A stretch of 64,000 bases of DNA from Desulfuromonas sp. SDB (lineage in GTDB: Bacteria; SDB-A). Shown here in pieces: positions 31,998 to 52,565 of the stretch. Numbering within the stretch: position 1 is the first letter of the stretch; every line of letters starts with the position of its first letter. The position numbers and the translations under genes are program-made. The stretch is from NCBI GenBank assembly GCA_001412365.1, contig LKUE01000319.1, positions 2,264 through 66,263 on the forward strand, in the 5' to 3' direction. The notes beneath the pieces were generated by a model. It saw only the letters and a list, made by a program, of their open reading frames with translations, had not been told where the DNA came from and ran no database searches.

Positions 31998-32753
31998 ATG
32001 AACCTTGATCTTTTAGAAAATATTTTACAGCAAGTGAGAGCAGGAAAATTACCGGTGGATAAAGCATTACAGGAATTATCAACATGGGGATACTTGGATC
32101 TTGGTTTTGCTAAATTAGATTTAGACAGACAGAGAAGAGTGGGCTTTCCGGAAGTGGTTTACGGCAAAGGTAAAACGGTTGATCAGATAATTGAAATAGT
32201 TAAATCGCTTTATCAACATCATTCCATGGCAGTGGTTACCAAAGTTAATGAAGATATTGCCAGTTCACTAACTTCCTGCCAGCTTCCAGTGAAATATTAC
32301 CATCAGGCAAAAATAATTTTAGTGGGTGAACCTAGACCGGTAAAATCCCCTCCTGCGGTGGCGGTAATTACCGGGGGAACTGCAGATATACCTGTAGCTG
32401 AGGAAGCAGCAGTTATTTGTGAAATTTATGGGAATGAAGTGGTGAGAATATATGACGCAGGAGTTGCTGGCATTCACCGTTTAATCAATAATTTAGAAAA
32501 GATAAACCAGGCGGGAATTATCATTGTGGTAGCGGGGATGGAAGGGGCATTGGGCAGCATTGTGGGCGGTCTGACTCCCCGTCCGGTAATTGCAGTTCCC
32601 ACCAGTGTGGGATACGGAGCTAATTTTCATGGATTAGCTGCTCTGTTAACTATGCTGAATTCCTGTGCTCCGGGAGTGGCGGTAGTAAATATTGACAATG
32701 GTTTCGGAGCGGGAGTTTTTGCAGCCATGGTCAATCAAGGATTAGTTAAATGA
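31998..32753 (+). CDS. larB: pyridinium-3,5-biscarboxylic acid mononucleotide synthase LarB (PurE-like)
   Basis: C-terminal PurE/AIR-carboxylase-like domain (VAVITGGTADIPVAEEA...IIVVAGMEGALGSIVGG) plus the LarB N-terminal domain. Confidence 0.7.
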   Translation: MNLDLLENILQQVRAGKLPVDKALQELSTWGYLDLGFAKLDLDRQRRVGFPEVVYGKGKTVDQIIEIVKSLYQHHSMAVVTKVNEDIASSLTSCQLPVKYYHQAKIILVGEPRPVKSPPAVAVITGGTADIPVAEEAAVICEIYGNEVVRIYDAGVAGIHRLINNLEKINQAGIIIVVAGMEGALGSIVGGLTPRPVIAVPTSVGYGANFHGLAALLTMLNSCAPGVAVVNIDNGFGAGVFAAMVNQGLVK

Positions 32754-33937
32754 TTAAGGGGTATTTTCACTGTTTCTCCGGAGTTAGCGGAGATATGCTG
32801 GTGGGAGCTTTTCTAGATTCAGGGGTGGAATTAACTGAGTTGCAATCCGAATTATCTAAACTAAAACTGACCGGATATCGAATTTATTCAGAAAAGGTGC
32901 TGAAAAATGGACTGGGGGGCACTAAGTTTAAAGTAGAAGCGGCACAGGATCATCCCTTTCGGAATTTAAATGATATTCTTAATTTAATAGAACAAAGCGG
33001 TTTATCCAAGTCAGTTAAGCAAAAATCAGTAAAGACCTTTGAACTTCTGGGGGAAATAGAGTCGGGAATTCATGGTTGTGATATCGGAAAAATTCATTTT
33101 CATGAAATTGGAGCAGTGGATTCAATTATTGATATAGTAAGTGTTTTTATCTGTGATCAACTTTCAGGCATTGATCAGTATTACTGTTCAAAAATACATA
33201 TTGGCACCGGTTTCACCAATTGTGATCATGGTCTTATTCCCCTGCCCTCTCCCGCCACCTCTGCTTTATTGAGGGGACTGCCCACTTTTAGCCTGGGCAT
33301 ACCGGGGGAATTAGCTACTCCCACCGGCGCCGCCCTGTTGAAAATCTTAGTGGATGAGTTTGACCGTTATCCTGCCATGATTATAAAGGATACCGGTTAC
33401 GGAGCAGGTTCCCGGGATTTAAAAACCCCCAATTTATTGAGATTGATAATTGGTGAATCAAGCGAAGATATGGCAGGCAATGGTTTTCAGACCGATCAGA
33501 TTGTTTTAGTCCAGGCAAATATTGACGATATGAATCCTGAATACTACCACTTGGTTATGGATAAGCTGGAGCAAGCAGGGACAGTGGATGTATTTCTGGA
33601 ACAGGTGATCATGAAAAATTCCCGTCCCGGAGTGATCTTGAATGTATTAGTAGAAGAACAAAATCTACTGCCGGTGGGTAATGTAATTCTCCGGGAAACG
33701 TCCACTTTTGGATTGAGATTCCAAAAGCTAAATAGATTTAAGCTGGTTAGAAAAATCAAAGAAGTGAAAACTGATTATGGTCCCATAAAAGTCAAACTAG
33801 GTTTAATTGGAGATGATCTTATTAAAATTGCGCCTGAATACCGGGACTGCAGACGAATTTCAATTGAACATAATATACCTTTAGATGAAGTTTATCAATT
33901 GGCTAAAAGTAAATTTAACCAGGAACATAAGATATGA
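32750..33937 (+). CDS. larC: nickel insertion protein LarC (DUF111)
   Basis: N-terminal HCFSGVSGDMLVGAFLDSG matches the LarC/DUF111 signature; 395 aa single-polypeptide form; 4-nt overlap with larB. Confidence 0.75.
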   Translation: MIKGYFHCFSGVSGDMLVGAFLDSGVELTELQSELSKLKLTGYRIYSEKVLKNGLGGTKFKVEAAQDHPFRNLNDILNLIEQSGLSKSVKQKSVKTFELLGEIESGIHGCDIGKIHFHEIGAVDSIIDIVSVFICDQLSGIDQYYCSKIHIGTGFTNCDHGLIPLPSPATSALLRGLPTFSLGIPGELATPTGAALLKILVDEFDRYPAMIIKDTGYGAGSRDLKTPNLLRLIIGESSEDMAGNGFQTDQIVLVQANIDDMNPEYYHLVMDKLEQAGTVDVFLEQVIMKNSRPGVILNVLVEEQNLLPVGNVILRETSTFGLRFQKLNRFKLVRKIKEVKTDYGPIKVKLGLIGDDLIKIAPEYRDCRRISIEHNIPLDEVYQLAKSKFNQEHKI

Positions 33938-34518
33938 AAAAATTTTTAAATCAATCCTATCAGACTGCTTTTAAAGCTTTACAGAATTTCATAGAAGATG
34001 AAAAAAATATTGACCAGACCGGGAAAATTTCAGAACTGATTGCTCAAGCATTTCACCGAGGAAACAAAGTTTTGATTTGTGGCAACGGAGGCAGCCTTTG
34101 TGATGCAGCCCATTTTGCTGAAGAATTTACCGGGAGGTACCGGAAAAACCGCAGAGCATTGCCGGTAATTGCTATTGCTGATCCTGCTCATCTAACCTGC
34201 AGTGGCAATGACTACGGATTTGAAAATATTTTCTCCCGGGGAGTGGAGGCTTACGGTAGTTCTCAGGATGTACTAATTGTTCTGTCTACAAGCGGTAATT
34301 CCCCCAACATTATCCAGGCAGTTAATAAGGCGGAACAAATGAATATAACTACAGTGGGTTTACTGGGAAAAGATGGAGGGAAACTGGTTGACCGCTGTGA
34401 TTATCAATTTGTGGTGGGTGAACAGACCTCTGATCGAATTCAAGAAATACACATGGTAATACTGCATATTATAATTGAAGGAGTGGAAAGGATCCTTTTT
34501 CCTGAAAATTATGTTTAA
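33934..34518 (+). CDS. gmhA: phosphoheptose isomerase (SIS domain)
   Basis: Close by-eye alignment to E. coli GmhA over its full length (VLICGNGGSLCDAAHFAEEFTGRYRKNR, STSGNSPNI, DRIQEIHM). Confidence 0.85.
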   Translation: MKKFLNQSYQTAFKALQNFIEDEKNIDQTGKISELIAQAFHRGNKVLICGNGGSLCDAAHFAEEFTGRYRKNRRALPVIAIADPAHLTCSGNDYGFENIFSRGVEAYGSSQDVLIVLSTSGNSPNIIQAVNKAEQMNITTVGLLGKDGGKLVDRCDYQFVVGEQTSDRIQEIHMVILHIIIEGVERILFPENYV

Positions 34519-34533
34519 CTGTAAAAATTCTTA

Positions 34534-35001
34534 ATGATTAAATATAACTACATCTGTACAGCCCTGGGATGGATTTTAATATCCGCTGAGCATCAACAGG
34601 TGAAAAGTATAAGTTTTTGGGATAGTATTCCTGCTTGTGAAAAATTCAATGACAGTTTTTTAGATTTCTGCACCGGTCAGATTCAGGATTATCTTGCCGG
34701 AAAATTAAACAAATTTAATCTTGGATATAATTTAGGGGGAACGGAATTTGATCAGCAGGTGTACCGTAAAGTGAATTTAATTCCCTTTGGTAAAGTTAAA
34801 AGTTATGAGGATATTGCGGTTGAACTGGGAGATAAAAATTTATCCAGGGCGGTGGGCAATGCCAACAGAAGGAATCCTCTTCCCTTAATTATTCCCTGTC
34901 ACCGCATCATTAAAAAAAATGGCGATCCCGGTGGGTACAGTGGAGGGGGGTGGAGGAAAAGATGGCTGCTCCAACATGAGAGTAAATTTTTTAATAACTA
35001 A
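34534..35001 (+). CDS. ogt: methylated-DNA--protein-cysteine methyltransferase
   Basis: Active-site PCHRII motif and the C-terminal winged-helix DNA-binding region. Confidence 0.8.
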   Translation: MIKYNYICTALGWILISAEHQQVKSISFWDSIPACEKFNDSFLDFCTGQIQDYLAGKLNKFNLGYNLGGTEFDQQVYRKVNLIPFGKVKSYEDIAVELGDKNLSRAVGNANRRNPLPLIIPCHRIIKKNGDPGGYSGGGWRKRWLLQHESKFFNN

Positions 35002-35006
35002 CCACC

Positions 35007-35759
35007 GTGAACAGACAGCAAATTATCGAATTCAAACAATTATTATCTCGCACTGAAAAAATAGTCGGATTTACCGGGGCAGGAGTCAGCACGGAATCAG
35101 GAATCCCCGATTACCGAAGCGCAGGGGGGATATGGGATAGATTTAAACCGGTGACCATTGATGAATTTATGTCCAGCGAACAGAAAAGGATTCAATATTG
35201 GCAGCGAAAAGTGATATTATGGGAACAAATTAGCCGGGCAAAACCTGGTAAAACCCATGTTTTTTTTAAACAACTGTATGACCGGCAAAGATTAAATGGG
35301 CTGATTACTCAGAATATTGACGGTTTGCATGAAACAAGCGGCTTGCCGGATGAATTGATAGTTAATCTTCATGGAACAAATTTATCTACTATTTGTATGT
35401 CCTGCGGTAAAAAATTTCCTTCATCTATCCTGTTTAAACACTTAGATTTAACTAAAGGATCCCCCCGCTGTGAAATTTGTGACGGCTATTTAAAACCTGA
35501 TACCATTTCTTTTGGTCAACAACTGGATCCAGTGAATTTGAAAAGAGCCACTTTTTTTTCTCAACATTGCCAGCTGATGATAGTGGCGGGAAGTTCACTG
35601 GTGGTTCAACCTGCTGCTTCCTTTCCCCTGATCGCTAAACAAAGCGGAGCAAGACTTGCAATAATTACTATCTCTGAAACTCCTCTGGATGTTTACGCAG
35701 ATTTTCTGTTTAAAATAAAATTAGGTGAATTTTGGGATATTTATGAACAGGAGAATTAA
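35007..35759 (+). CDS. cobB: NAD-dependent protein deacylase (sirtuin, CobB-type with Zn ribbon)
   Basis: GAGVSTESGIPDYRS, QNIDGLH and a CxxC...CxxC zinc module. Confidence 0.88.
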   Translation: MNRQQIIEFKQLLSRTEKIVGFTGAGVSTESGIPDYRSAGGIWDRFKPVTIDEFMSSEQKRIQYWQRKVILWEQISRAKPGKTHVFFKQLYDRQRLNGLITQNIDGLHETSGLPDELIVNLHGTNLSTICMSCGKKFPSSILFKHLDLTKGSPRCEICDGYLKPDTISFGQQLDPVNLKRATFFSQHCQLMIVAGSSLVVQPAASFPLIAKQSGARLAIITISETPLDVYADFLFKIKLGEFWDIYEQEN

Positions 35760-35767
35760 AACCTCTA

Positions 35768-36022
35768 ATGACTGGTAATGTAAATTCAGCCGCTGATTCA
35801 AAGCCTAAATGGTATTATTCCAGATGGGGAGTGCTGTTGCTGTTGTTTTTAATTGCAGGTCCCCTGGGCTTGCCCTTTTTATTTAAAAGTGAACAATTTA
35901 GCAAATTTTGGAAAATTGTTATTACTTTTATCACCGCAGTTTACTTTGTAACAATAATTATTCTGTTGATAAGTTTGGAGTTGTGGTTTGTGCATCGGAT
36001 TGTCTGTCTGCAATACTCCTAA
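35768..36022 (+). CDS. small two-TM membrane protein, hypothetical
   Basis: 84 aa with two clear hydrophobic helices; follows cobB by 8 nt. Confidence 0.4.
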   Translation: MTGNVNSAADSKPKWYYSRWGVLLLLFLIAGPLGLPFLFKSEQFSKFWKIVITFITAVYFVTIIILLISLELWFVHRIVCLQYS

Positions 36023-37638
36023 GTTTTTACCTTTATGTTTTTAAAAAATTTATTCAGTTCCCATCCCCAAAAAGGTAACAGAGGAATTGAAATCACCACT
36101 ACAGAAAGGATGAGAGTGGTGTGACTGCCGGACCGCAGCCCCGGCCAGTTGAATATAAATAAATCTGCAGTGAGATGCGATATTATTACAGTTAACAAGT
36201 CGTATTTTATATAAATTATCCCCCATACCAATCCCACCAGAATCATCATAACTGCTCTTCCCCAGACTGGTTTTTGAGGAGGGAGGAAAGTTAAACTGGC
36301 ATGAGTCAAGCCGTAAATAATGGAAGTTATGAACAGGGCAATCCAGGTATGTTTGGTAAGTTTAGTTAACCAAGTTATCCCGAAAGCACGGTATCCGAAT
36401 TCTTCTATAACTGCGATGAGGATGAAATATAGTAATGAGGTCAGGGCGGGAATATTGGAATTTAATATATAAAGATAAAACCCCCGGGGCTGAACTGAAA
36501 TATGTACCGGGGATAATAAGTTGATCATAAGGATAGCTCCGCTGATCATCCCTCCGCAGATTAATCCCACCAGAAAACCTCTTGCCGAGCTTAATCCAAC
36601 CTGGGGATAAAATATTTTTCCCCGAGTCAATTTCCAAAAAGATTCAGTTTTATCCCGGTTGGTGATTAAATATTCGGCTGCCCCCACTAAAGCCAGCAAC
36701 AGTAGTAATACCGGAAAATCTGAAATAAATAAGTACACTATGGTTTGCACATAACTTAACCATTTGGGGACCAGGGGATTCCAAGATCTGAATAATAATG
36801 ATTGCTGAAAAAGATTGGTTAGCAGCCAGCACAGGGAAATGATAAGCACAACCGATAAAACCCTGTTTACCGGCAAACGTCTTTGGTGAAGGGATGTTAA
36901 CAGCAGAATAAATGCATAAATGCCTCCTGCTAACATTAAAATCATTCCAAATATTCTTAAACTGTCCTGAAAGGATAAATCAGCACGGCGTAGCTTTTTC
37001 CAAGAGGAGGGAATGTTAATGTTGCGCTGAATCAGGGAAATCTTATTACCGGCAAGTCCGTAAGTTTCTTCCTGATTGATTAAAAAAACAGAAAAGCTGT
37101 CCCTGCCGAAGAAAAATTGATAATCAGTGCGATGAGGTAATTCTCTTATGGAATAACCTTTTTGGTTAAGAGAGGGTGTATCTGCCAGAAAAAAAGATAT
37201 CAGCCGGAAAGCTTTGTCAACACTAATACGAGCTCCGGGATGATCATAAGGCAATGAAATCTGGGAAGATATGATATCTAAATTTTTATTGAAGGATATA
37301 AAGAAAACAGTCTGTTCTCCTTGCTTTTTAAATAAAATATTGTAGCGGAAGGGACTAATATTGGAATTTATTAACTGATTTATTAACTTTCCGGGATAAC
37401 ATGATTCTAAAAAATCCAGCTCATCTTCCCTTACTTCAAGGTATACTTCGTGATCATAGCCGTTTAAGTCATACCCGTTTGAATTGAAATAAAAACAAGC
37501 CCGGTTGTAAATCTGGCGGTGATCAGGATATAAATTTACTTCAGGCATCGGCCACAGTTCATCAATAAATAAAAATAAAACCAAGCCAAAGCAAACTGCC
37601 AAAATAGTTAGAACAATAAATTCAGATTTAAATTTCAT
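36019..37638 (-). CDS. CPBP (CAAX protease/Abi, PF02517) intramembrane metalloprotease with an N-terminal signal anchor and a ~200-aa ectodomain
   Basis: C-terminal CPBP motifs EExxxR (AVIEEFGYRAF), FxxxH (IIYGLTHA) and a distal HxxxD/N helix; multiple TMs; 539 aa. Confidence 0.75.
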   Translation of the reverse strand: MKFKSEFIVLTILAVCFGLVLFLFIDELWPMPEVNLYPDHRQIYNRACFYFNSNGYDLNGYDHEVYLEVREDELDFLESCYPGKLINQLINSNISPFRYNILFKKQGEQTVFFISFNKNLDIISSQISLPYDHPGARISVDKAFRLISFFLADTPSLNQKGYSIRELPHRTDYQFFFGRDSFSVFLINQEETYGLAGNKISLIQRNINIPSSWKKLRRADLSFQDSLRIFGMILMLAGGIYAFILLLTSLHQRRLPVNRVLSVVLIISLCWLLTNLFQQSLLFRSWNPLVPKWLSYVQTIVYLFISDFPVLLLLLALVGAAEYLITNRDKTESFWKLTRGKIFYPQVGLSSARGFLVGLICGGMISGAILMINLLSPVHISVQPRGFYLYILNSNIPALTSLLYFILIAVIEEFGYRAFGITWLTKLTKHTWIALFITSIIYGLTHASLTFLPPQKPVWGRAVMMILVGLVWGIIYIKYDLLTVIISHLTADLFIFNWPGLRSGSHTTLILSVVVISIPLLPFWGWELNKFFKNIKVKT

Positions 37639-37646
37639 TATCTAAT

Positions 37647-40607
37647 TTAGTGGTAATATATTATTCCCTTGCCCTCTCTGCCCTGTAGCAATATATGCAG
37701 GGGATTTGATAATTTTAGGCATGTGGTATACCTGCCTGTTTTCTGAGGCAAATGTTGTTTTATCCAGTCCCAATTGATAAAGCTTTTATGATCTTGGTAA
37801 TCAATGGATAAATATCCGATATTCATCGAAGTTATATTGTGGAAGAAATGAGAACCTAAAGAGGGGTCTACTTGAAAATCTTCCAGTCCGTATTCGACAA
37901 TGGCTTTTGCTTTGGAGATTTGATTCCACTCAACCGGAATTCCCAGCCATTGATCCCTGCTTCCCCACCGCCCCGGACCAATTAACAAATAGTTAAAAGA
38001 ATTTTGTTTAGCCAGGTCATTGAAAGATTCAATCTCGGTGGCGATTTCCTGAGTTTTGGATTTATCGAATTTTTGGGGTTCAATATAGATTACATGGAAA
38101 ATATTTTTTATTTCCCCATTTCCTAGAGAACGGTTGGATTTCAGAATTACTTTTTCAGGGTTTATTTGGCTTAAGTCAATTTTTAATTCAGAAATTTTCC
38201 TCATAAAAGGTTTAACTTGAAGCAGGAAAAAAACTGGCTGGGGTTGAGCAGAAAGATCAACTGCGAATTCTATCTCCACCGGGGTTCCCAAGGCAAATTT
38301 CAAGATATCCAGTGTTTTCTGGATTATTTCAGCCAGAGGAAAAGTCTGATATTTTAAAATATAGGGAAAATTTGCCACCAAAGGGCCACGTTTATTTAAC
38401 CCGGGAACTAATCTGCCGTTATCAGCATCCCAAGTGGAAAGACAGCTTTGAAAATCCTGAAGTTCTAAATTCCGGTCCAGCGGAATGGTGGTCAGGGTAG
38501 CTTGTTCTCCAGCCAGAAGGTCAGGATGATGATCTGATAGATTTAATGCAATCAGCTCTTTCTGGGTATGGGAAAGCAGATCTATGGAGGTTTCAAACTC
38601 AATTTTGGGATGAGCTGGACAGAAGCGGTAAGCTTGACCGCCTTCCACCACATAGAATCCCAGACCCAGGGCAATAACTGATATCCCCTCTTCCGGTTTG
38701 ATGTGGGAGAGGGGATAGTAATTATAAGATTGGGCAATACCTGAAATATGAGGATAAAATTTTTGTTGATAGTTTTTCCCCGCCACTTCTTGAATTATCA
38801 CTGCCATGCGTTCTTCTTCAATTTTATAGTTAACCGCATCGAAATAACTCCGGGCAATTTTTGAATAAACAGAAGCATAAACCAGTTTTATCGCATTCAT
38901 CAGCTGCTGTAATCTTTGTTCTGGTTGGGGATGATGGTTGGGGATGATATAGGTGTTGTAAAGTCCGGAAAAAGGCTGAGCTAAGGAGTCTTCAAATAAT
39001 CCCGATGATCTGATAGCCAGAGGGTAGTTGATTTTTTCCAGGTAAATTTTCAAGTTTTCAATTAGAGATGATGGCAGGGAGTGCTTTATAAATTCTGAAC
39101 GGAGATTGAAAATATCATCTTCATAAGCGGCAAATTCCAGAAGATGGTTATCTCCCAAAAATTGCTCAAAAGCTTCGGTGCCGATAATTACTGTATTGGG
39201 GATGGTTATCTCCACCCCGGAAATGTTTTTCAGCAGAGAACTATGGTGTATTAAATTATTTAAAAAAGCAATCCCTCTCCCCTTGCCCCCTAAAGAACCT
39301 CCGGCTAAACGGGAAATATTGATTCGGTCATGAATGTATCGGTTATCGAAGTTGATGATTTTGCCTTTGGTTTTTTCGTACTCCACCTCCCTGCAGGTTT
39401 TCAGCAGATGCTCCCGGATCTGCTTTACTGAACTGAAATCAGAAACTTTCGATTTCTGAAGCTTTTGGGCAATTTTAATTTCACCACGAGCCATCAGCCA
39501 GGATGAAAAATGATTTTGCTCTCCATGATAAATCAACGAATCATCAGCTATGGTTTCCAGCAATGCCTTGAACTCGGGTAGATTTCTGGCCCGGGCTAAT
39601 TCATTTCCCCGGGCATCTTTAAACACAAAATCACCAAAGCCAAGATTGGAAATTATAAAATTTTTCAGTTCTGATTCCAGCATCTCAGAATTTTTATCTA
39701 GAAATGAAGCGTGGAGATTATCCGCATAGATTCTGTTTTGGGGATTATATGATTGCATGAGAACAGGAAGGTCAGGAAGCAGATATTTTACTTCCTTGAT
39801 TAGTTTCATTCCAGCATCTTCTCTGATTTCCTGTTGAAAAGGGAACTTAAAGTCGGAAATGACTGCTACCAGATAGTCTTGGTAATTATTTAGAATTTTT
39901 ATCGCCTGGGGGTAATTGTCGCAAAGCAGTATCTTTGGTCTGGTTCTCATTCTGAGTAATTTTTTTGATTCATCCAGATTTTCTTCTTTAATCAATCTTT
40001 GAGTTTGTTTGATGATTTCAGTGTAGAGCAGGGGGAGGTATCGGGAATAATAACGGATGGAATCTTCAACCACTAAAATAACCCGGACCATTCCCACTTC
40101 GGTGTCATGGTGGACATTTTTTAAATCTTCTATGTACTTTACTATCGCTAGAAAAATTTTCGGTTCTCCGCTCCATACAAAAATCCGGTCAATTTCAGGA
40201 TTTTCCCTGCACCATTGCTGGCATAGGGTGATATCACTATGGTCATTCAACAAAAGCACAATGGGTAGTTGGGGATATTGATTTCTAATTTTTTGGCTGT
40301 ATTCAAAAGGGGAGAATTCATCTATTCTCATGGTGAGAATTACCAAGTCATATTGTTTTTGGCACAACATCTGTATTGCTTCTTCACCTGAGCTGGCACT
40401 GGTGATTTTGGGTGCGCTGGACAGGTTCAGCTGGTAGTATTCTCCAAAAATTTTTTCAGTGAGCATATCTTCCTGCTCAATTATGTAAGCGTCATATAAA
40501 GTTGAAACCAGCAGGATGTCTCGAATTTTAAAAGGCATTAAATCGTGGTAAATCTCTCTTTGTAATTTGTATTCACTGAGATAAGACTGATAAATCTGTT
40601 TGGACAA
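37647..40607 (-). CDS. multidomain signalling protein: pseudo-receiver + receiver (REC) + PPDK_N / PEP-synthase-type ATP-grasp nucleotide-binding domain + unknown C-terminal domain
   Basis: REC-like blocks at residues ~25-130 (DLVILT, acidic pocket degenerate) and ~175-290 (ILVVEDS...VAVISDFKFP...PVLMQS, with the Asp and Ser/Thr conserved). PPDK_N motifs GGSLGGKGRGIAFL, LAIRSSGLFEDS, MAVIIQEV, SGIAQS, LGLGFYVVEG. No TSHAA phospho-His swivel motif was found. Confidence 0.6.
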   Translation of the reverse strand: MSKQIYQSYLSEYKLQREIYHDLMPFKIRDILLVSTLYDAYIIEQEDMLTEKIFGEYYQLNLSSAPKITSASSGEEAIQMLCQKQYDLVILTMRIDEFSPFEYSQKIRNQYPQLPIVLLLNDHSDITLCQQWCRENPEIDRIFVWSGEPKIFLAIVKYIEDLKNVHHDTEVGMVRVILVVEDSIRYYSRYLPLLYTEIIKQTQRLIKEENLDESKKLLRMRTRPKILLCDNYPQAIKILNNYQDYLVAVISDFKFPFQQEIREDAGMKLIKEVKYLLPDLPVLMQSYNPQNRIYADNLHASFLDKNSEMLESELKNFIISNLGFGDFVFKDARGNELARARNLPEFKALLETIADDSLIYHGEQNHFSSWLMARGEIKIAQKLQKSKVSDFSSVKQIREHLLKTCREVEYEKTKGKIINFDNRYIHDRINISRLAGGSLGGKGRGIAFLNNLIHHSSLLKNISGVEITIPNTVIIGTEAFEQFLGDNHLLEFAAYEDDIFNLRSEFIKHSLPSSLIENLKIYLEKINYPLAIRSSGLFEDSLAQPFSGLYNTYIIPNHHPQPEQRLQQLMNAIKLVYASVYSKIARSYFDAVNYKIEEERMAVIIQEVAGKNYQQKFYPHISGIAQSYNYYPLSHIKPEEGISVIALGLGFYVVEGGQAYRFCPAHPKIEFETSIDLLSHTQKELIALNLSDHHPDLLAGEQATLTTIPLDRNLELQDFQSCLSTWDADNGRLVPGLNKRGPLVANFPYILKYQTFPLAEIIQKTLDILKFALGTPVEIEFAVDLSAQPQPVFFLLQVKPFMRKISELKIDLSQINPEKVILKSNRSLGNGEIKNIFHVIYIEPQKFDKSKTQEIATEIESFNDLAKQNSFNYLLIGPGRWGSRDQWLGIPVEWNQISKAKAIVEYGLEDFQVDPSLGSHFFHNITSMNIGYLSIDYQDHKSFINWDWIKQHLPQKTGRYTTCLKLSNPLHILLQGREGKGIIYYH

Positions 40608-40696: not shown

Positions 40697-41773
40697 ATGA
40701 ATAAAGTGCTGTTTTTTTTTACTCAAGGTTATTATGTTCTGGTCCGACTGACCAACTCAACCTATTTTTTTGATTTATTATACCGGTTGTTGAAAGATCC
40801 TTTTCAGATTAATCAGTCCTGCTACGAAATGAAAAAATTCAATAAGATGTTGGAATCTATTCCTCCCGGTGATTATCGCCATTGCCTGGATATTGGCTGC
40901 GGAACTGGTGTGCTTACCTCTAAAATACTTTCCATCTCCTCAAAGGTTACCGGAATAGACCTTTCTCCCCGGGCTATAAATGTAGCCAGGCATAAATATA
41001 AACAGGAATCTCGATTAACCTTTATCTCAGCGGATATATGCTCATATCAAAGTGATTCAAGCTATGATTTATTTATCTGCTCCGAAGTTCTCTACTATCT
41101 ACAGCCCAAAGAGTTAACTAAGGCAATTCAGCAAATAAAAAAACTGACGGATAAAAGGGGGGTACTTGTTTTTGTAGGTAGAGCAGATGATAACTATGTA
41201 AGCAGGCAGCTTGAAAAGTATTTTTCGTTGATAGACAAATTCATCTGCCCGGCTCAATTCACCTATAGAGGGCTTGGACTGAACATTTCCAGGCCATTTG
41301 GTATTTTTATTTACCGAATATCAAACCGGGGAGTGGATGCTGATTTGTCAATAAGATTTTATAAATCCAGGGATTATACCCAGTTGATCCGGTTATGGAA
41401 ACAATGCAAATTACCCCTTAAACCGAAGGGCAGAGATAGCCGGGAAGAACTGGACCGTCAGTCAAAATTATCCACCTCGATATTTCTGGTAGCTTATACA
41501 GGAGAAGAATTGGCGGGATCGGTTTTTGCTACCGATGATGGCAGGAAAGGTTGGATAAACAGATTGGCGGTTAATAAAAAATACCGTAAAAGAGGCATTG
41601 CCAGTAAATTACTGAAAACTGCAGAAAATAAGCTTGCTGAAAAGGGAATTAAAATGAATGCCTGTTTAATTGAATCAGATAACCTTAACTCTAAACTATT
41701 TTTTAAGGAAAGGGGATACCGGGAAGTCAAAGGAATCTCCTATTTTACCAAAAAAAAGAATAGGGATATTTGA
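40697..41773 (+). CDS. fusion protein: class I SAM-dependent methyltransferase (N) + GNAT N-acetyltransferase (C)
   Basis: MTase motif I LDIGCGTGVLT; GNAT motif A (WINRLAVNKKYRKRGIASKLL). The true start may be an internal Met near 40829. Confidence 0.6.
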   Translation: MNKVLFFFTQGYYVLVRLTNSTYFFDLLYRLLKDPFQINQSCYEMKKFNKMLESIPPGDYRHCLDIGCGTGVLTSKILSISSKVTGIDLSPRAINVARHKYKQESRLTFISADICSYQSDSSYDLFICSEVLYYLQPKELTKAIQQIKKLTDKRGVLVFVGRADDNYVSRQLEKYFSLIDKFICPAQFTYRGLGLNISRPFGIFIYRISNRGVDADLSIRFYKSRDYTQLIRLWKQCKLPLKPKGRDSREELDRQSKLSTSIFLVAYTGEELAGSVFATDDGRKGWINRLAVNKKYRKRGIASKLLKTAENKLAEKGIKMNACLIESDNLNSKLFFKERGYREVKGISYFTKKKNRDI

Positions 41774-41780
41774 GGCGGAA

Positions 41781-42431
41781 ATGAAAAAATTAAATGAAAA
41801 GCTGATAATATTTGATCTGGATGGAACTTTATACCGCTCAGAAACTTCATTTTTTCCGGCAGTTCAAAGATTTTTTGATGAATATGCCAGCCCTTCGCAG
41901 ACTGCAAGAATATTCAAAGATAAATTTGTAAATAAGTTTATCGGAGAACCAGAGCATGTATTTGTCAACTGGTTATCTGCTATGTTTCCCCATCAGAATC
42001 CGGTTAAGATGAAAGAACAATTTGAAGAATATGAATTATCCGCGGTACAAAGTTCAGGTCAATTATATCCGGGAGTCATGGAAACCCTGGATTGGCTGAA
42101 TGTTAATGATTACGATATTTACCTTTGTTCAAATGCCACTTTAAATTACCTTGAGGCGATTATCAATAAATTTAATTTATCCCAATATTTCAAAGCACTG
42201 TACATCCCTCAAACCAAACAGCACACCAAAAAGATGATGATGAAAGAAATTAAGGAAAAGTCCGGCAAGCAAAGTGGTTACGCAGTGGGAGACAGATTTC
42301 ACGATTTGCAGGCAGCCCTGGCTAACCAGTTATTTTTTTTCGGAGCAGCTTACGGATATGCCCCTGAGGAAATGAAACCAGCCCATAAGTTGTTGTCAGA
42401 AGTAAAACAGATTATTGATACTTTGAAATAA
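41781..42431 (+). CDS. HAD-superfamily hydrolase
   Basis: HAD motif I IIFDLDGTLY. The ORF-track start at 41670 overlaps the upstream gene by 100 nt; the ATG at 41781 has a GAGG RBS. Confidence 0.7.
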   Translation: MKKLNEKLIIFDLDGTLYRSETSFFPAVQRFFDEYASPSQTARIFKDKFVNKFIGEPEHVFVNWLSAMFPHQNPVKMKEQFEEYELSAVQSSGQLYPGVMETLDWLNVNDYDIYLCSNATLNYLEAIINKFNLSQYFKALYIPQTKQHTKKMMMKEIKEKSGKQSGYAVGDRFHDLQAALANQLFFFGAAYGYAPEEMKPAHKLLSEVKQIIDTLK

Positions 42432-50279: not shown

Positions 50280-52565
50280 TTACTCCATGATAATTTTCAA
50301 ACGTTCAATCTTTGAAGCGGGATCAAGAGCAAATATCTCCTCGACTTCGGATATTCGCAAAGACCCGCTAGAGGTGAACTTAATGTTTATTATAAAACTA
50401 TTTTGTTTGTTTTCTGCATTGATTATAAATTTTCGTGCATTAATAGTTTTAATTTTATTCTTTGTTTTTCGATTAATTAATATTATCTGCTGATTTAATA
50501 TTTTATCAATAATTTTAGATTTTACATCCACAAAATTATACACCAAACCAGTTACCCGGGAAGTAATTGGTTTAGATCCTTGAGTTCCCCGTTCACAGGA
50601 TACCACCTCTAATCCTGGTGGCAACTGCGGGGATATTCTCTGTTCAATTTGTTCAACTGGATATTGATTTGATCTGAATTCCATTATTTCACAGCGGGAA
50701 ATCACCTTAAATGGAAGGGGAGGGCTGAAATTTACTTTAGGCCGGGGTCTTTTTCCCTTGGTCATTTCCAGGGGCAAGCGAGCTCTCCGGAATGCTCTCA
50801 GCAACGCTCTTATTGTATCTAGATGGGAAAGATAGATAAGCTGTTCGGTTTTGGAATAATTGAGGAGGTAAGTGTGGCCAGTATTGATTTCAGGAGGGGA
50901 GGTAAATATATTGGTTGAAGTAGAAGTTGAAGGATCAACCGCAGGTGAACAACCACTGTTAGAAAAAATTATTTCAGTCCACGGTTGATGGTTTTGTCGG
51001 TTTTTAAGCTGTTTGTCTATATCTATATCCTGTTTTTGCATAGCCTGCTTCCACCGGGGGTAGTCAAAATATTCATCCCACTGGTCAAACCTTGAACCTT
51101 GCTTGAAAACTTCAACCGCTGCTTTGGACATGCGCTCATCTCCCCGGGCTAAAATACCTTCAACAATGGCTAAGTGTGGATTCCGGGCGCTGATGGCAAC
51201 AGGTTCCGGAGCCAGTAATTTTTTTACCTGATGATATTTAGTCATTATCTCAGAGTAGGTGGCTTGAGGTTGATGCTGAAAAGGGGTGTAGGGGCGGGGG
51301 ACGAAAGGGGATAGGGAAACTTTCACCCGGGTAGATCCGAGGTGAGGTTTTAATTTTTTTATCAAACCGGGTATTGCTTTTATATCTTCCTCAGTCTCCT
51401 GGGGTAATCCCAGCATAAAGTAAAATTTTATCCGATTGAAGTTATGTTTGACCGCCAATTTCACTGAGTTAATAATCTGTTGATCGGTTATGGGTTTTCC
51501 AATAATTTTTCTCAACCCTTCAGTCCCTGCTTCCGGAGCCAGGGTAAGAGTTCGATGACCGAACCTTCCGGCAATAGCCAGAGTGGTCTCTGATATCTGA
51601 TCTACTCTCAATGAAGGCAGAGAGAGATTTACTTGTTCCGCTTTTAAAACCGGTTCTAAATCAATTAAAATTTCTTCAAGTTGGGGATGGTCACATACAG
51701 ATAAACTTAACAAAGAGACTTCTTCCCATCCAGTTTGGCAAAGTCCCTGATTAATTATTTCAATTATTTGCTGTTTGCTGCGGTAACGCACATTTCTGGT
51801 AATTGATCCGGATTGACAGAATTTACAGTTCCGGAAACATCCCCGGGAAATCTCCACCGCTAAACGATCCTGGGTAATCTGGATAAAAGGAAGGATTGGA
51901 GGTAGGGGATAATCTGAATACTTTAATTTTTCAGCATATTGATAGGAAAGGGGTAAACCTGATCTACCCCGGACATATATCCCCTCTATCTTACTCAACT
52001 GCTCAATAGCTTGATCGCGGTTAATTTGTTTTAGATGATAATTTCTTACTATTTTAGCCAGGGGAAGTAAAACAGGTTCAGCTTCTCCAATTACCAGTGC
52101 ATCAAAAAACAAATTCCACAGATTGAAATTTAAAGCAGAGGCGCCTCCTCCTATAACCAGTGGATCATGGCTATTTCGCTGTTGGGAATACAGGGGGATG
52201 TCGGATAGGGAAAGGATGTTTAAAACATTGGTAATATTTAACTCACATTCCAATGAAATTCCCAACATGGCGAAGGCATTTACGGGGTATTTTGACTCCA
52301 GAGAAAACAGGCGCATCTTTTTGCGGATCAGTAATTTTTCCAAATCAGAGCAAGGAGCGTACACCCTGTCTACATTATAACCATGGGTAATTAATATGTG
52401 ACGGATTATATGCAGTCCTAAATTGGACATCCCATTTTCGTAAAGGTCTGGATAGCATAGTACTATTTCCGGACACTGAGGAGGATGGCTATGCAATTCA
52501 TGATTGGTGTATCTGGAAGGATTCTGTACCTGATCAAGGATTGATTTCAAATCATCCATTACCAC
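50280..52565 (-). CDS. B12-binding-domain radical SAM protein fused to a DUF2344 (TIGR03960 + TIGR03936-like) module
   Basis: CFRNCKFCQSG radical-SAM CxxxCxxC; N-terminal cobalamin-binding-like domain; C-terminal HLDTIRALLRAFRRARLPL DUF2344 motif; 761 aa. Confidence 0.65.
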   Translation of the reverse strand: MVMDDLKSILDQVQNPSRYTNHELHSHPPQCPEIVLCYPDLYENGMSNLGLHIIRHILITHGYNVDRVYAPCSDLEKLLIRKKMRLFSLESKYPVNAFAMLGISLECELNITNVLNILSLSDIPLYSQQRNSHDPLVIGGGASALNFNLWNLFFDALVIGEAEPVLLPLAKIVRNYHLKQINRDQAIEQLSKIEGIYVRGRSGLPLSYQYAEKLKYSDYPLPPILPFIQITQDRLAVEISRGCFRNCKFCQSGSITRNVRYRSKQQIIEIINQGLCQTGWEEVSLLSLSVCDHPQLEEILIDLEPVLKAEQVNLSLPSLRVDQISETTLAIAGRFGHRTLTLAPEAGTEGLRKIIGKPITDQQIINSVKLAVKHNFNRIKFYFMLGLPQETEEDIKAIPGLIKKLKPHLGSTRVKVSLSPFVPRPYTPFQHQPQATYSEIMTKYHQVKKLLAPEPVAISARNPHLAIVEGILARGDERMSKAAVEVFKQGSRFDQWDEYFDYPRWKQAMQKQDIDIDKQLKNRQNHQPWTEIIFSNSGCSPAVDPSTSTSTNIFTSPPEINTGHTYLLNYSKTEQLIYLSHLDTIRALLRAFRRARLPLEMTKGKRPRPKVNFSPPLPFKVISRCEIMEFRSNQYPVEQIEQRISPQLPPGLEVVSCERGTQGSKPITSRVTGLVYNFVDVKSKIIDKILNQQIILINRKTKNKIKTINARKFIINAENKQNSFIINIKFTSSGSLRISEVEEIFALDPASKIERLKIIME

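Follow-up and report, generated by a model that had tools for sequence, protein, structure and literature searches.

A receiver-containing PPDK_N ATP-grasp protein with a predicted swivelling C-terminal domain, encoded beside a CPBP protease in Desulfuromonas sp. SDB

In a 64,000-nucleotide stretch of contig LKUE01000319.1 of Desulfuromonas sp. SDB (hereafter the window), two neighboring genes raise the question of what a 986-aa response regulator with a pyruvate phosphate dikinase (PPDK)-type ATP-grasp does, and whether the CPBP intramembrane protease encoded next to it belongs to the same system. A reading made from the sequence alone (the sequence-only reading) had regarded the two as an acquired and undescribed module, possibly defence-like. 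Our analysis, in which domain identities, conservation, distribution and gene neighborhoods were observed directly, points elsewhere. We favor, with a probability of roughly 55%, the joint interpretation that the large protein is a REC-controlled phosphotransferase of the dikinase type with a link to glutamate/2-oxoglutarate, and that its pairing with the CPBP gene is ancestral gene order.

Two genes and a five-module response regulator

Both open reading frames were confirmed on the minus strand at the positions in Table 1, and they are real genes because full-length homologues exist for each. The gene for the 986-aa protein has a TTG start with AGGAGG 7 nt before it, and the CPBP gene lies downstream on the same strand after a gap of 8 nt. 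An Rfam scan of the window returned no matches, while the promoter and terminator scan found fewer sites than in shuffled sequences and was therefore uninformative.

Table 1. Positions of the two genes and their domains in the window
Feature	Position	Strand	Basis
Gene, 986-aa response regulator, five modules (REC1, REC2, MID, PPDK_N ATP-grasp, CTD)	37647..40607	-	ORF and Pfam
REC1, aspartate-less pseudo-receiver (residues 1-165)	40113..40607	-	Pfam Response_reg, residues 61-120; T91
REC2, apparently competent receiver (residues 170-312)	39672..40100	-	Conserved pocket, model, Foldseek
MID, DUF5752-like beta-hairpin and helical domain (residues 313-430)	39318..39671	-	DUF5752 match; conservation
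PPDK_N-type ATP-grasp (residues 431-807)	38187..39317	-	Pfam PPDK_N, E 7e-30
CTD, predicted swivelling beta/beta/alpha domain (residues 808-986)	37650..38186	-	Model; conserved motifs
Gene, 539-aa CPBP (Rce1-like) intramembrane protease	36019..37638	-	ORF; PF02517, E 4.6e-13
CPBP ~200-aa loop between TM1 and polytopic core (residues 26-228)	36955..37563	-	Hydropathy

The order of the five modules is constant across the family in a domain scan, and the AlphaFold model of the 986-aa protein has a mean pLDDT of 83. The proposed series of a pseudo-receiver, a competent receiver and a PPDK_N domain was borne out by Pfam, alignments and the model. Pfam places its receiver match (PF00072, E 1.7e-9) within REC1. 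Here T91 is aligned with the phospho-Asp of NtrC1, and family members have T, M or I at the acceptor position; REC1 is a pseudo-receiver because T91 occupies that position. REC2, which carries a long helical insertion after beta-1, is undetected by Pfam. Three of its residues, E181, D252 and K305, never vary, S286 varies at most rarely, and most members retain D182, a few having N instead. The AlphaFold model shows a (beta-alpha)5 pattern for both domains, their custom HMMs cross-match each other, and Foldseek matched them to the tandem receivers of PleD and to NtrX and PorX. With its Asp pocket, Ser and Lys conserved, REC2 is thus apparently competent, as had been proposed. PleD-type proteins likewise have two consecutive receiver folds, one alone of which is phosphorylatable, but in the 986-aa protein the pseudo-receiver comes first, the reverse of their order, and the output domain is an ATP-grasp instead of GGDEF.

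The MID domain, which follows the receivers, matches DUF5752 slightly under the cut-off of 23 bits when the whole protein is scanned (residues 339-405, 22.2 bits) and above it when the segment is scanned alone (E 1e-5, 25.5 bits). It harbors the motifs LGFGDF and NHFS-W-ARGE and the invariant residues L322-G325, F327, H361, N365, F367, W370 and G375-E376. In the AlphaFold model, these 118 residues are the sole unassigned segment big enough for an acceptor-binding domain, and MID is a candidate ligand or acceptor site.

The presence of a PPDK_N ATP-grasp, also part of the sequence-only reading, is well founded. The PF01326 match covers residues 438-807 and profile positions 3-315 of 328 (104.8 bits; cut-off 27). 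The motifs GGK-R, RSS, ED, IQE, E-E-FA and LQ are invariant, with G440-G441-K442, R444, R533-S534, E539-D540, Q606, E780 and Q797 as invariant residues. Judged by its sequence, the ATP-grasp is complete, with all the expected ATP- and Mg-binding motifs invariant.

Homologues of the 986-aa protein are abundant: more than 6000 proteins of ~990 aa, ~50% identical across many phyla, come from at least 586 species genomes, and those of human gut Parabacteroides, Phocaeicola and Prevotella share 36% identity over the full length. Homologues occur in few plasmid or phage records, and these are either large, non-mobilizable replicons or unverified bins. Paralogues occur as tandem receiver-less and receiver-containing copies side by side, and also as fused GRASP-CTD-GRASP-CTD proteins. 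"Bacteroides-like" REC-PPDK response regulators and the aspartate-less receiver already appear in two censuses (Galperin 2018, PMC5847659; Maule 2015, PMC4395418), so the architecture can no longer be called undescribed. With receiver(s) fused to PPDK_N and a receiver devoid of the aspartate, the census proteins are the same family; their entries there give the architecture alone and do not mention function, CTD fold, paralogue pairing or gdh linkage. Literature searches on DUF5752, on PPDK_N with a response regulator and on Bacteroides gdhA neighbors yielded nothing about function, and no characterized member of the REC-PPDK family was found in the literature and database searches.

A dikinase-like core with a divergent C-terminal domain

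Like rifampin phosphotransferase (RPH), PEP synthase and PPDK, the 986-aa protein has a PPDK_N ATP-grasp with all nucleotide-binding motifs, and a swivelling beta/beta/alpha domain, which directly follows the ATP-grasp in PPDK, is predicted at the same place. In contrast to these enzymes, its N terminus consists of two receivers and a DUF5752-like domain. It also lacks their remaining hallmarks, as neither a GGxTSH motif nor PF00391 (PEP-utilizers) was found in it with Pfam, and the PEP/pyruvate TIM barrel (PF02896) and the rifampin-binding domain gave no Pfam or NCBIfam match. The NCBIfam models for PEPS, PigC and RedH match only the first ~150 to 180 ATP-grasp residues, far under their cut-offs. 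Because the canonical His and TIM-barrel domains are absent, an ordinary PEP synthase or PPDK was rejected, in agreement with the earlier view that this is not a canonical dikinase.

The nearest solved structures to the ATP-grasp are rifampin phosphotransferase (5hv1, Foldseek E 2e-12) and, as second-best match, HpeI. A precedent for an ATP-grasp that cooperates with a swivel-His partner is provided by the two-component dikinases HpeHI and phenylphosphate synthase (PMC12167813), in which the ATP-grasp is likewise found apart from the canonical His and the substrate-binding component. Unlike HpeHI, the 986-aa protein appears to fuse a divergent swivel-like domain to its ATP-grasp and has no HpeH-like partner gene nearby; REC-PPDK family members that do have a partner are paired with a paralogue sharing their GRASP-CTD core.

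The segment after PPDK_N comprises ~180 aa (808-986) instead of the ~280 aa first attributed to it. It contains two motifs, GPGRWG[S/T] (877-883) and S-x-G-[S/T]-H-F-F (916-922), in which R880, W881, G882, S916, G918 and H920 are 100% invariant among 169 sequences, including receiver-less paralogues. In the CTD model, which is of high confidence, H920 is located at a helix N terminus after G-S, like the His of TSH. A Foldseek comparison of the full-length model with PPDK (1ggo) gave 692 aligned columns, the ATP-grasp alone being 377 residues. For the CTD, the prediction is a swivelling fold as in phosphohistidine domains. The claim that the protein has no phospho-His domain was therefore right in that the canonical TSHAA/PEP-utilizers domain is absent by sequence, but it overlooked a CTD with a predicted swivel fold and an invariant His. 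According to the model, this domain, with its two motifs of invariant core residues, would take the place of the "missing" His domain.

At the sequence level, no Pfam match to PEP-utilizers was found in 21 family CTDs at E<=10, and hhalign comparisons of the CTD gave nothing significant with Escherichia coli PpsA and PtsI and a probability of ~1% with a 122-sequence PEP-utilizers profile. A Foldseek search of the PDB with the CTD alone returned nothing below E 0.001. The single local sequence match, D-x-W-LGIPV against ARELGIPA of PEP-utilizers, aligns GPGRWG[S/T] with GGRT[S/C]H, so that the canonical position is occupied by Ser/Thr and not by His.

The lack of sequence-level homology to PEP-utilizers and of His-domain support from the CTD-alone search suits a different interpretation, in which the CTD is not a carrier. 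The protein would then either act directly as an ATP-grasp kinase or ligase, or be a pseudoenzyme that senses nucleotides and controls its partners, for instance the paralogue or glutamate dehydrogenase, by binding to them. The CTD itself would be an oligomerization or substrate-binding domain. The swivelling fold is also known in non-carrier domains (GroEL apical domain, aconitase domain 4 and LdcA), and paralogues in tandem, as well as GRASP-CTD-GRASP-CTD fusions, suggest obligatory oligomerization. We consider this interpretation unlikely, although it is the best placed of the alternatives to the dikinase-type phosphotransferase.

The CPBP protease and the gene neighborhoods

The 539-aa protein shares with other CPBP/Rce1-like proteases an above-cut-off match to PF02517 (residues 398-493, 49.7 bits; cut-off 22.4) and the EExxxR, xxxH and HxxxD motifs. 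These correspond to E412-E413-x3-R417, Y442-x3-H446 and H488-x3-D492 and are invariant in 16 subfamily members, which were the only relatives found by a word-indexed search and stem mainly from Acidobacteriota and Gemmatimonadota MAGs. What sets it apart is an added N-terminal TM helix followed by a ~200-aa loop of no known family, which precedes the polytopic core according to hydropathy. The loop is probably extracytoplasmic and its length is conserved across the subfamily; it has no Pfam match, and a structure search with the CPBP family profile found no solved relative. The neighbor belongs to the CPBP proteases and carries a large loop domain, as had been noted; it is a true intramembrane protease and represents a separate subfamily.

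The sequence-only reading took the inversion of the pair relative to its neighbors as typical of horizontal acquisition, and supposed that the protease and the REC-PPDK_N protein may work together in a signalling or defence-like module. The strand switch is real, but relatives share it. The G+C content of the pair (0.37 to 0.40) is the same as that of the remaining window, and the flanking genes are housekeeping genes with no integrases at the borders. Relatives at 91% and 60% identity possess the same pair in the same orientation and both keep the CPBP-side flank (SIR2, ogt, SIS, LarC and LarB), while the other flank is also kept in the 91% relative. Such a stable gene order had been set beforehand as a refuting result, and horizontal acquisition was rejected on ordinary composition and conserved synteny.

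The close spacing of the two genes on one strand, along with a 44-nt overlap between them in the relatives whose regulator is 60% and whose CPBP is 39% identical, speaks for the module and indicates that the operon persisted within this lineage. Against a module of wider occurrence, a core-only HMM (E<=1) found no CPBP of any kind at up to 8 kb from the homologue in any of 80 genome loci, nor was a homologue of this CPBP found within 7 to 9 kb in 9 further loci from other phyla, and distant CPBP homologues lie in unrelated contexts without a REC-PPDK partner. A family-wide linkage was rejected on these neighborhood results. A search of PADLOC-DB gave no match for the CPBP protein and, for the large protein, a sole weak match of the receiver region to PDC-M60B (E 0.007); neither protein fits a PADLOC defence family, and a defence system was rejected as well. 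The nature of the plasmid and phage records also argues against mobility. The acquired module is therefore improbable here and, as a general module, largely refuted. Only in the window's lineage are the CPBP gene and the regulator co-transcribed, and their arrangement reflects an ancestral order of chromosomal genes local to that lineage, not an acquired or defence module.

Recurrent neighbors of the homologues are instead glutamate dehydrogenase, 2-oxoacid:ferredoxin oxidoreductase and a tandem paralogue. Glutamate dehydrogenase is encoded within 8 kb in 44 of the 80 loci (immediately adjacent in 34), and a Gdh, KorAB or GltD-like gene is present in 60, although these counts are not phylogenetically independent because Bacteroidales dominate the sample. 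Gdh was also found in locus L003, which belongs to the window's lineage, and in L094, L095 and the Parabacteroides and Phocaeicola loci; several loci from other phyla are devoid of gdh, and the 64-kb window itself contains neither gdh nor a paralogue. The recurrent neighborhood suggests a role at the glutamate/2-oxoglutarate node. Histidine kinases adjoin the homologue in some loci and are absent from others, and none was found among the window ORFs in a limited phmmer test with a single kinase query.

Proposed phosphoryl transfer and its significance

For the dikinase-type phosphotransferase that we favor, we infer phosphotransfer via the CTD, control by REC2 and a link to glutamate metabolism. 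ATP would be bound in the ATP-grasp, and the phosphoryl group would move to the adjacent swivel-like CTD, with invariant His920 or, alternatively, Ser/Thr883 of GPGRWG[S/T] as the putative carrier. From there it may pass to an acceptor outside the recognizable domains of the protein, for which a MID ligand and a partner protein are candidates. Phosphorylation of REC2 Asp252 by an unlinked histidine kinase would switch the activity.

A self-contained phosphorelay, in which the ATP-grasp and swivel-His would phosphorylate the protein's own REC2 Asp252 or a paralogue's receiver as a non-HisKA "histidine kinase," would fit the fusion of a competent receiver with a swivel-type domain that has an invariant His, the side-by-side receiver-less and receiver-containing paralogues, and the variable presence of kinases near homologues with none found in the window, but it is purely inferential and lacks precedent among PPDK_N proteins, histidine kinases are adjacent in some loci, and receiver-less paralogues often have no obvious receiver partner in the same locus, so that we think it very improbable.

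While the acquired CPBP/REC-PPDK_N module was not upheld, interest remains in the REC-PPDK family itself, for which the CTD swivel fold with its two motifs, the tandem or fused core, and the gdh and 2-oxoacid oxidoreductase neighbors are added leads. As a speculation with a small chance of being correct, the GRASP-CTD core may be a new ATP-grasp-driven phosphoryl carrier (through His920 or Ser/Thr883) that perhaps acts on proteins. It could be a non-HisKA phosphodonor to its own receiver, or a protein dikinase that switches glutamate dehydrogenase or 2-oxoglutarate enzymes covalently. The function is directly approachable because cultured, likely tractable Bacteroidales have a divergent gdhA/REC-PPDK_N pair. 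If the protein dikinase option were true, it would mean that nitrogen assimilation in Bacteroidales and many uncultured phyla is under post-translational control.

The gene pair and its chromosomal setting

Two minus-strand ORFs, separated by 8 nt, encode the 986-amino-acid regulator and the 539-amino-acid CPBP protein, and their coordinates match exactly those first read from the sequence. The regulator gene begins with a TTG codon located 7 nt after AGGAGG. Because the plus strand carries nearly every other gene from 1 to 47 kb, the strand switch at the pair is real, as had been proposed.

Coordinates of the genes discussed (positions in the window unless another locus is named)
Location	Strand	Feature	Remark
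31998-35759	plus	LarB-like (AIRC), LarC-like (Ni_insertion), SIS-domain, ogt-type methyltransferase and SIR2/CobB genes	upstream; run adjoins the CPBP gene also in the relatives with 91% and 60% identity
35768-36022		84-aa hydrophobic ORF	converges on the CPBP gene; 3' ends share 4 nt
36019-37638	minus	539-aa CPBP gene	ORF call
37647-40607	minus	986-aa regulator gene	ORF call
41670-42431		HAD-hydrolase ORF, 253 aa as listed	shares ~100 nt with the end of the methyltransferase-GNAT gene
50280-52565		761-aa fusion of a TIGR03960-type B12-binding radical SAM and a TIGR03936 radical-SAM-associated protein	adjoins RNase G
L003:481-7609 (relative, 60% identical regulator)		glutamate dehydrogenase, 775-aa paralogue, regulator	in this order
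L004:1-6811 (relative, 60% identical regulator)		775-aa paralogue, regulator	in this order
L097:7423-16715 (Parabacteroides distasonis NZ_OY725790.1)		gdhA and family member	divergent, adjacent
L031:7509-10967; L047:7461-10967 (Bacteroidales)		first tandem paralogue	in-frame upstream extension of ~160-190 codons

The inversion had been interpreted as the mark of an acquired module. The G+C content between 36 and 41 kb (0.37-0.40) is the same as elsewhere in the window, and both the pair and its CPBP-side flank are shared with relatives. In the relative whose regulator is 91% identical, the window's pair recurs unchanged together with both of its flanks; in the relatives with 60% identity, whose CPBP protein is 39% identical, the pair is kept with a 44-nt overlap and is followed by the same SIR2, ogt, SIS, LarC, and LarB genes. 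The locus is thus one of conserved chromosomal synteny and not an island. A defence-like role also finds no backing, as PADLOC did not assign the regulator/CPBP pair to any defence family.

The CPBP protein has a single N-terminal transmembrane helix (residues 7-25), a loop of ~200 amino acids, and about eight hydrophobic segments, with an Rce1-like/CPBP core recognized by Pfam at residues 398-493 (E 4.6e-13). Residues E412, E413, R417, Y442, H446, H488, and D492 are invariant in a 16-member CPBP subfamily, while the loop domain matched no Pfam family and no solved relative. The pairing with the regulator is restricted to this lineage. Distant CPBP homologues from Acidobacteriota-type metagenome-assembled genomes (MAGs) have no REC-PPDK_N neighbour. 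Within 80 genome loci of the family with 8-kb flanks, no CPBP gene was detected with a full-length HMM (E<=1e-3) or with a core-only HMM at E<=1, and tblastn with the window's CPBP protein gave no match in 9 further family loci. The anticipated co-occurrence across the family is therefore not seen, and the link is best explained as a lineage-specific operon organisation. In sum, the sequence-only reading was correct as a description, but its interpretation mostly fails.

Other observations concern the neighbouring genes. The 84-aa hydrophobic ORF has no family match and is retained with unchanged length in the 91% relative. The HAD-hydrolase ORF probably starts at a downstream ATG, since as listed it overlaps its neighbour and the corresponding gene is called at 216 aa in the 91% relative. 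The radical SAM fusion scores slightly under the TIGR03960 family cut-off.

Receivers, middle domain, and ATP-grasp of the regulator

In the 986-aa protein, Pfam detects a receiver at residues 61-120 (E 1.7e-9), PPDK_N at residues 438-807 (E 7e-30), and a sub-threshold DUF5752 at residues 339-405. In an alignment with NtrC1, T91 of the "DLVILT" motif pairs with the acceptor Asp of "VVLLD", and this position is occupied by T, M, or I in alignments of 28 and 87 family members; by these residues, the first receiver (REC1) is a pseudo-receiver. The second (REC2) is not matched by Pfam even at E<=10, because of a long helical insertion after beta-1. No substitution occurs in these alignments at its E181, D252, or K305, few if any occur at S286, and most members keep D182, a few having N instead. 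The AlphaFold model has a (beta-alpha)5 pattern over residues 176-321, Foldseek retrieved the tandem receivers of PleD as a structural match, and our REC1 and REC2 HMMs each match the other's region. REC2 thus looks competent, and on this residue and fold evidence the earlier description, in which a competent receiver comes after a pseudo-receiver, was right.

The only segment without an assignment is the 118-aa middle domain (MID), which carries invariant LGFG-F and H-x3-N-x-F-x2-W-x4-GE motifs. The ATP-grasp domain is complete as judged from its sequence: the PPDK_N match spans profile positions 3-315 of 328, and GGK442-R444, R533-S534, E539-D540, Q606, E780, and Q797 are invariant. From PPDK and RPH, we take these motifs to bind nucleotide and Mg. 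NCBIfam models of PEP synthase, PigC, and RedH score far below their cut-offs and match only the first ~150-180 ATP-grasp residues; none of the acceptor-binding domains known from dikinases was found in the protein. Among solved structures, rifampin phosphotransferase and HpeI come closest, and in HpeHI an ATP-grasp component of this kind operates with a swivel-His component (PMC12167813).

A predicted swivel fold in the C-terminal domain

A separate and highly conserved C-terminal domain (CTD) makes up the final ~180 residues. It was found in 1575 clusters in a search of 1.84 billion representative proteins and, in the best 150 of the 1575 cluster representatives, is without exception C-terminal to this PPDK_N subfamily. 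A phospho-His domain had been reported as apparently lacking. At the sequence level this holds: the CTD contains no GGxTSH motif, PF00391 was unmatched at E<=10 in the window's CTD and in 21 CTDs, and a PEP-utilizers alignment of 122 sequences showed no significant profile-profile similarity to it (probability about 1%). The predicted structure, however, is a swivel fold with an invariant histidine. First in its structural match list is the phosphoryl-carrier domain of PPDK (2fm4; 109 of 128 residues aligned, 7.3), followed by Geobacillus pyruvate kinase with its PEP-utilizer-like C-terminal domain (7.0) and maize PPDK (6.8); rifampin phosphotransferase is 5th (6.4), and three Enzyme I His domains are 6th, 12th, and 14th (6.0, 5.7, and 5.6). 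Much of the remaining list presumably belongs to the "swivelling beta/beta/alpha" fold of SCOP, in which we place GroEL/thermosome apical domains, aconitase domain 4, putative cyclases, the LdcA C-terminal domain, and RraA-like proteins. The CTD alone gave no Foldseek match below E 0.001. With the full-length model, PPDK 1ggo aligned over 692 columns, far exceeding the 377 residues of the ATP-grasp alone, which is consistent with a CTD placed where PPDK has its His domain.

Two motifs stand out in 169 diverse CTDs, receiver-less paralogues included: R880, W881, G882, G889, S916, G918, and H920 are 100% invariant, and only S or T occurs at position 883. In the predicted structure, H920 follows G-[S/T] at a helix N-terminus, the setting of the catalytic His in TSHAA. 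The sole local profile match pairs the CTD's "D-x-W-LGIPV" with "ARELGIPA", and a collinear strand reading from it aligns GPGRWG[S/T] with GGRT[S/C]H. Read this way, S/T883 would replace the canonical His and H920 would lie in an inserted loop and helix. The two motifs likely form one functional site.

A widespread family with paralogues and glutamate-metabolism neighbours

A word-indexed search with the 986-aa protein (E<=0.001) returned 6055 proteins. Nearly all of the 120 best matches have 970-1030 aa and are 47-60% identical, the exception being the one 91% relative; their sources include Spirochaetes, Riflebacteria, WOR-3, Krumholzibacteriota, CSSED10, and Desulfuromonas. Scanning GTDB at one genome per species confirmed at least 586 family loci, and HMMs cut from the family alignment found REC1, REC2, MID, ATP-grasp (GRASP), and CTD in essentially every full-length member. 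Cultured carriers among the matches listed are Marinifilum, Labilibaculum, Draconibacterium, and Prolixibacter; tblastn added full-length homologues with 36% identity in Parabacteroides distasonis, Phocaeicola massiliensis, and Prevotella sp. oral taxon 299. Two human faecal records labelled "UNVERIFIED: Bacteriophage sp." (MT835811.1 and MT835667.1) also encode full-length homologues with 36% identity and are probably mislabelled Bacteroidales chromosomal contigs. The family is not "undescribed": published censuses already list the REC-PPDK architecture (Galperin et al., PMC5847659) and report aspartate-less receivers as enriched with PPDK effector domains (Maule et al. 2015, PMC4395418). Our literature search found no functional study of it.

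In the 60% relatives, a 775-aa paralogue lies upstream of the regulator; it lacks receivers but shares the GRASP-CTD core, with 28% identity over 564 residues. The window and the 91% relative have the methyltransferase-GNAT gene at this site, which implies that the locus lost gdh and the paralogue or that they moved. Rare fusions of 1520-1650 aa contain two GRASP-CTD units, with ~330 residues between them in three examples (1523-1654 aa). Together with the tandem paralogues, these Rosetta-stone-type fusions suggest paired operation of the catalytic core. The upstream extension of the first tandem paralogue, present in many Bacteroidales genomes and reaching 570 codons in loci L064 and L069, may represent a genuine additional N-terminal domain or may result from choosing the first possible start codon.

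ORFs near the 80 loci were clustered and representatives annotated with Pfam. Glutamate dehydrogenase (Gdh) lies within 8 kb in 44 of the 80 loci (directly adjacent in 34), KorAB-type 2-oxoacid:ferredoxin oxidoreductase in 14-16, a NuoE/NuoF/GltD-like cluster in 16-20, at least one of Gdh, GltD-like, and KorAB in 60, and a second family member in tandem in 38, the loci being mostly from Bacteroidales and the counts not independent. The gdh association nevertheless recurs in at least five phylum-level groups with varied gene arrangements. Gdh is close in L003 of the window's own lineage, on an unclassified 742-kb contig, in an Ozemobacteraceae MAG, and in Ignavibacteria and Cloacimonadota loci. 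It is absent from the 64-kb window and from several other loci. We estimate chance adjacency at less than about 1% for a gene occurring once or twice per genome.

The regulator may act at the glutamate/2-oxoglutarate node. ATP-dependent phosphoryl transfer would proceed through the CTD to an acceptor, and phosphorylation of D252 would control this activity. In Phocaeicola massiliensis, as in P. distasonis, gdhA is divergent from and adjacent to a family member annotated "PEP/pyruvate-binding domain-containing protein", and a second NADP-GDH gene follows about 3.5-4 kb downstream. This pairing offers cultured organisms for functional testing, and the remaining interest lies in the uncharacterised family rather than in a two-gene "module".
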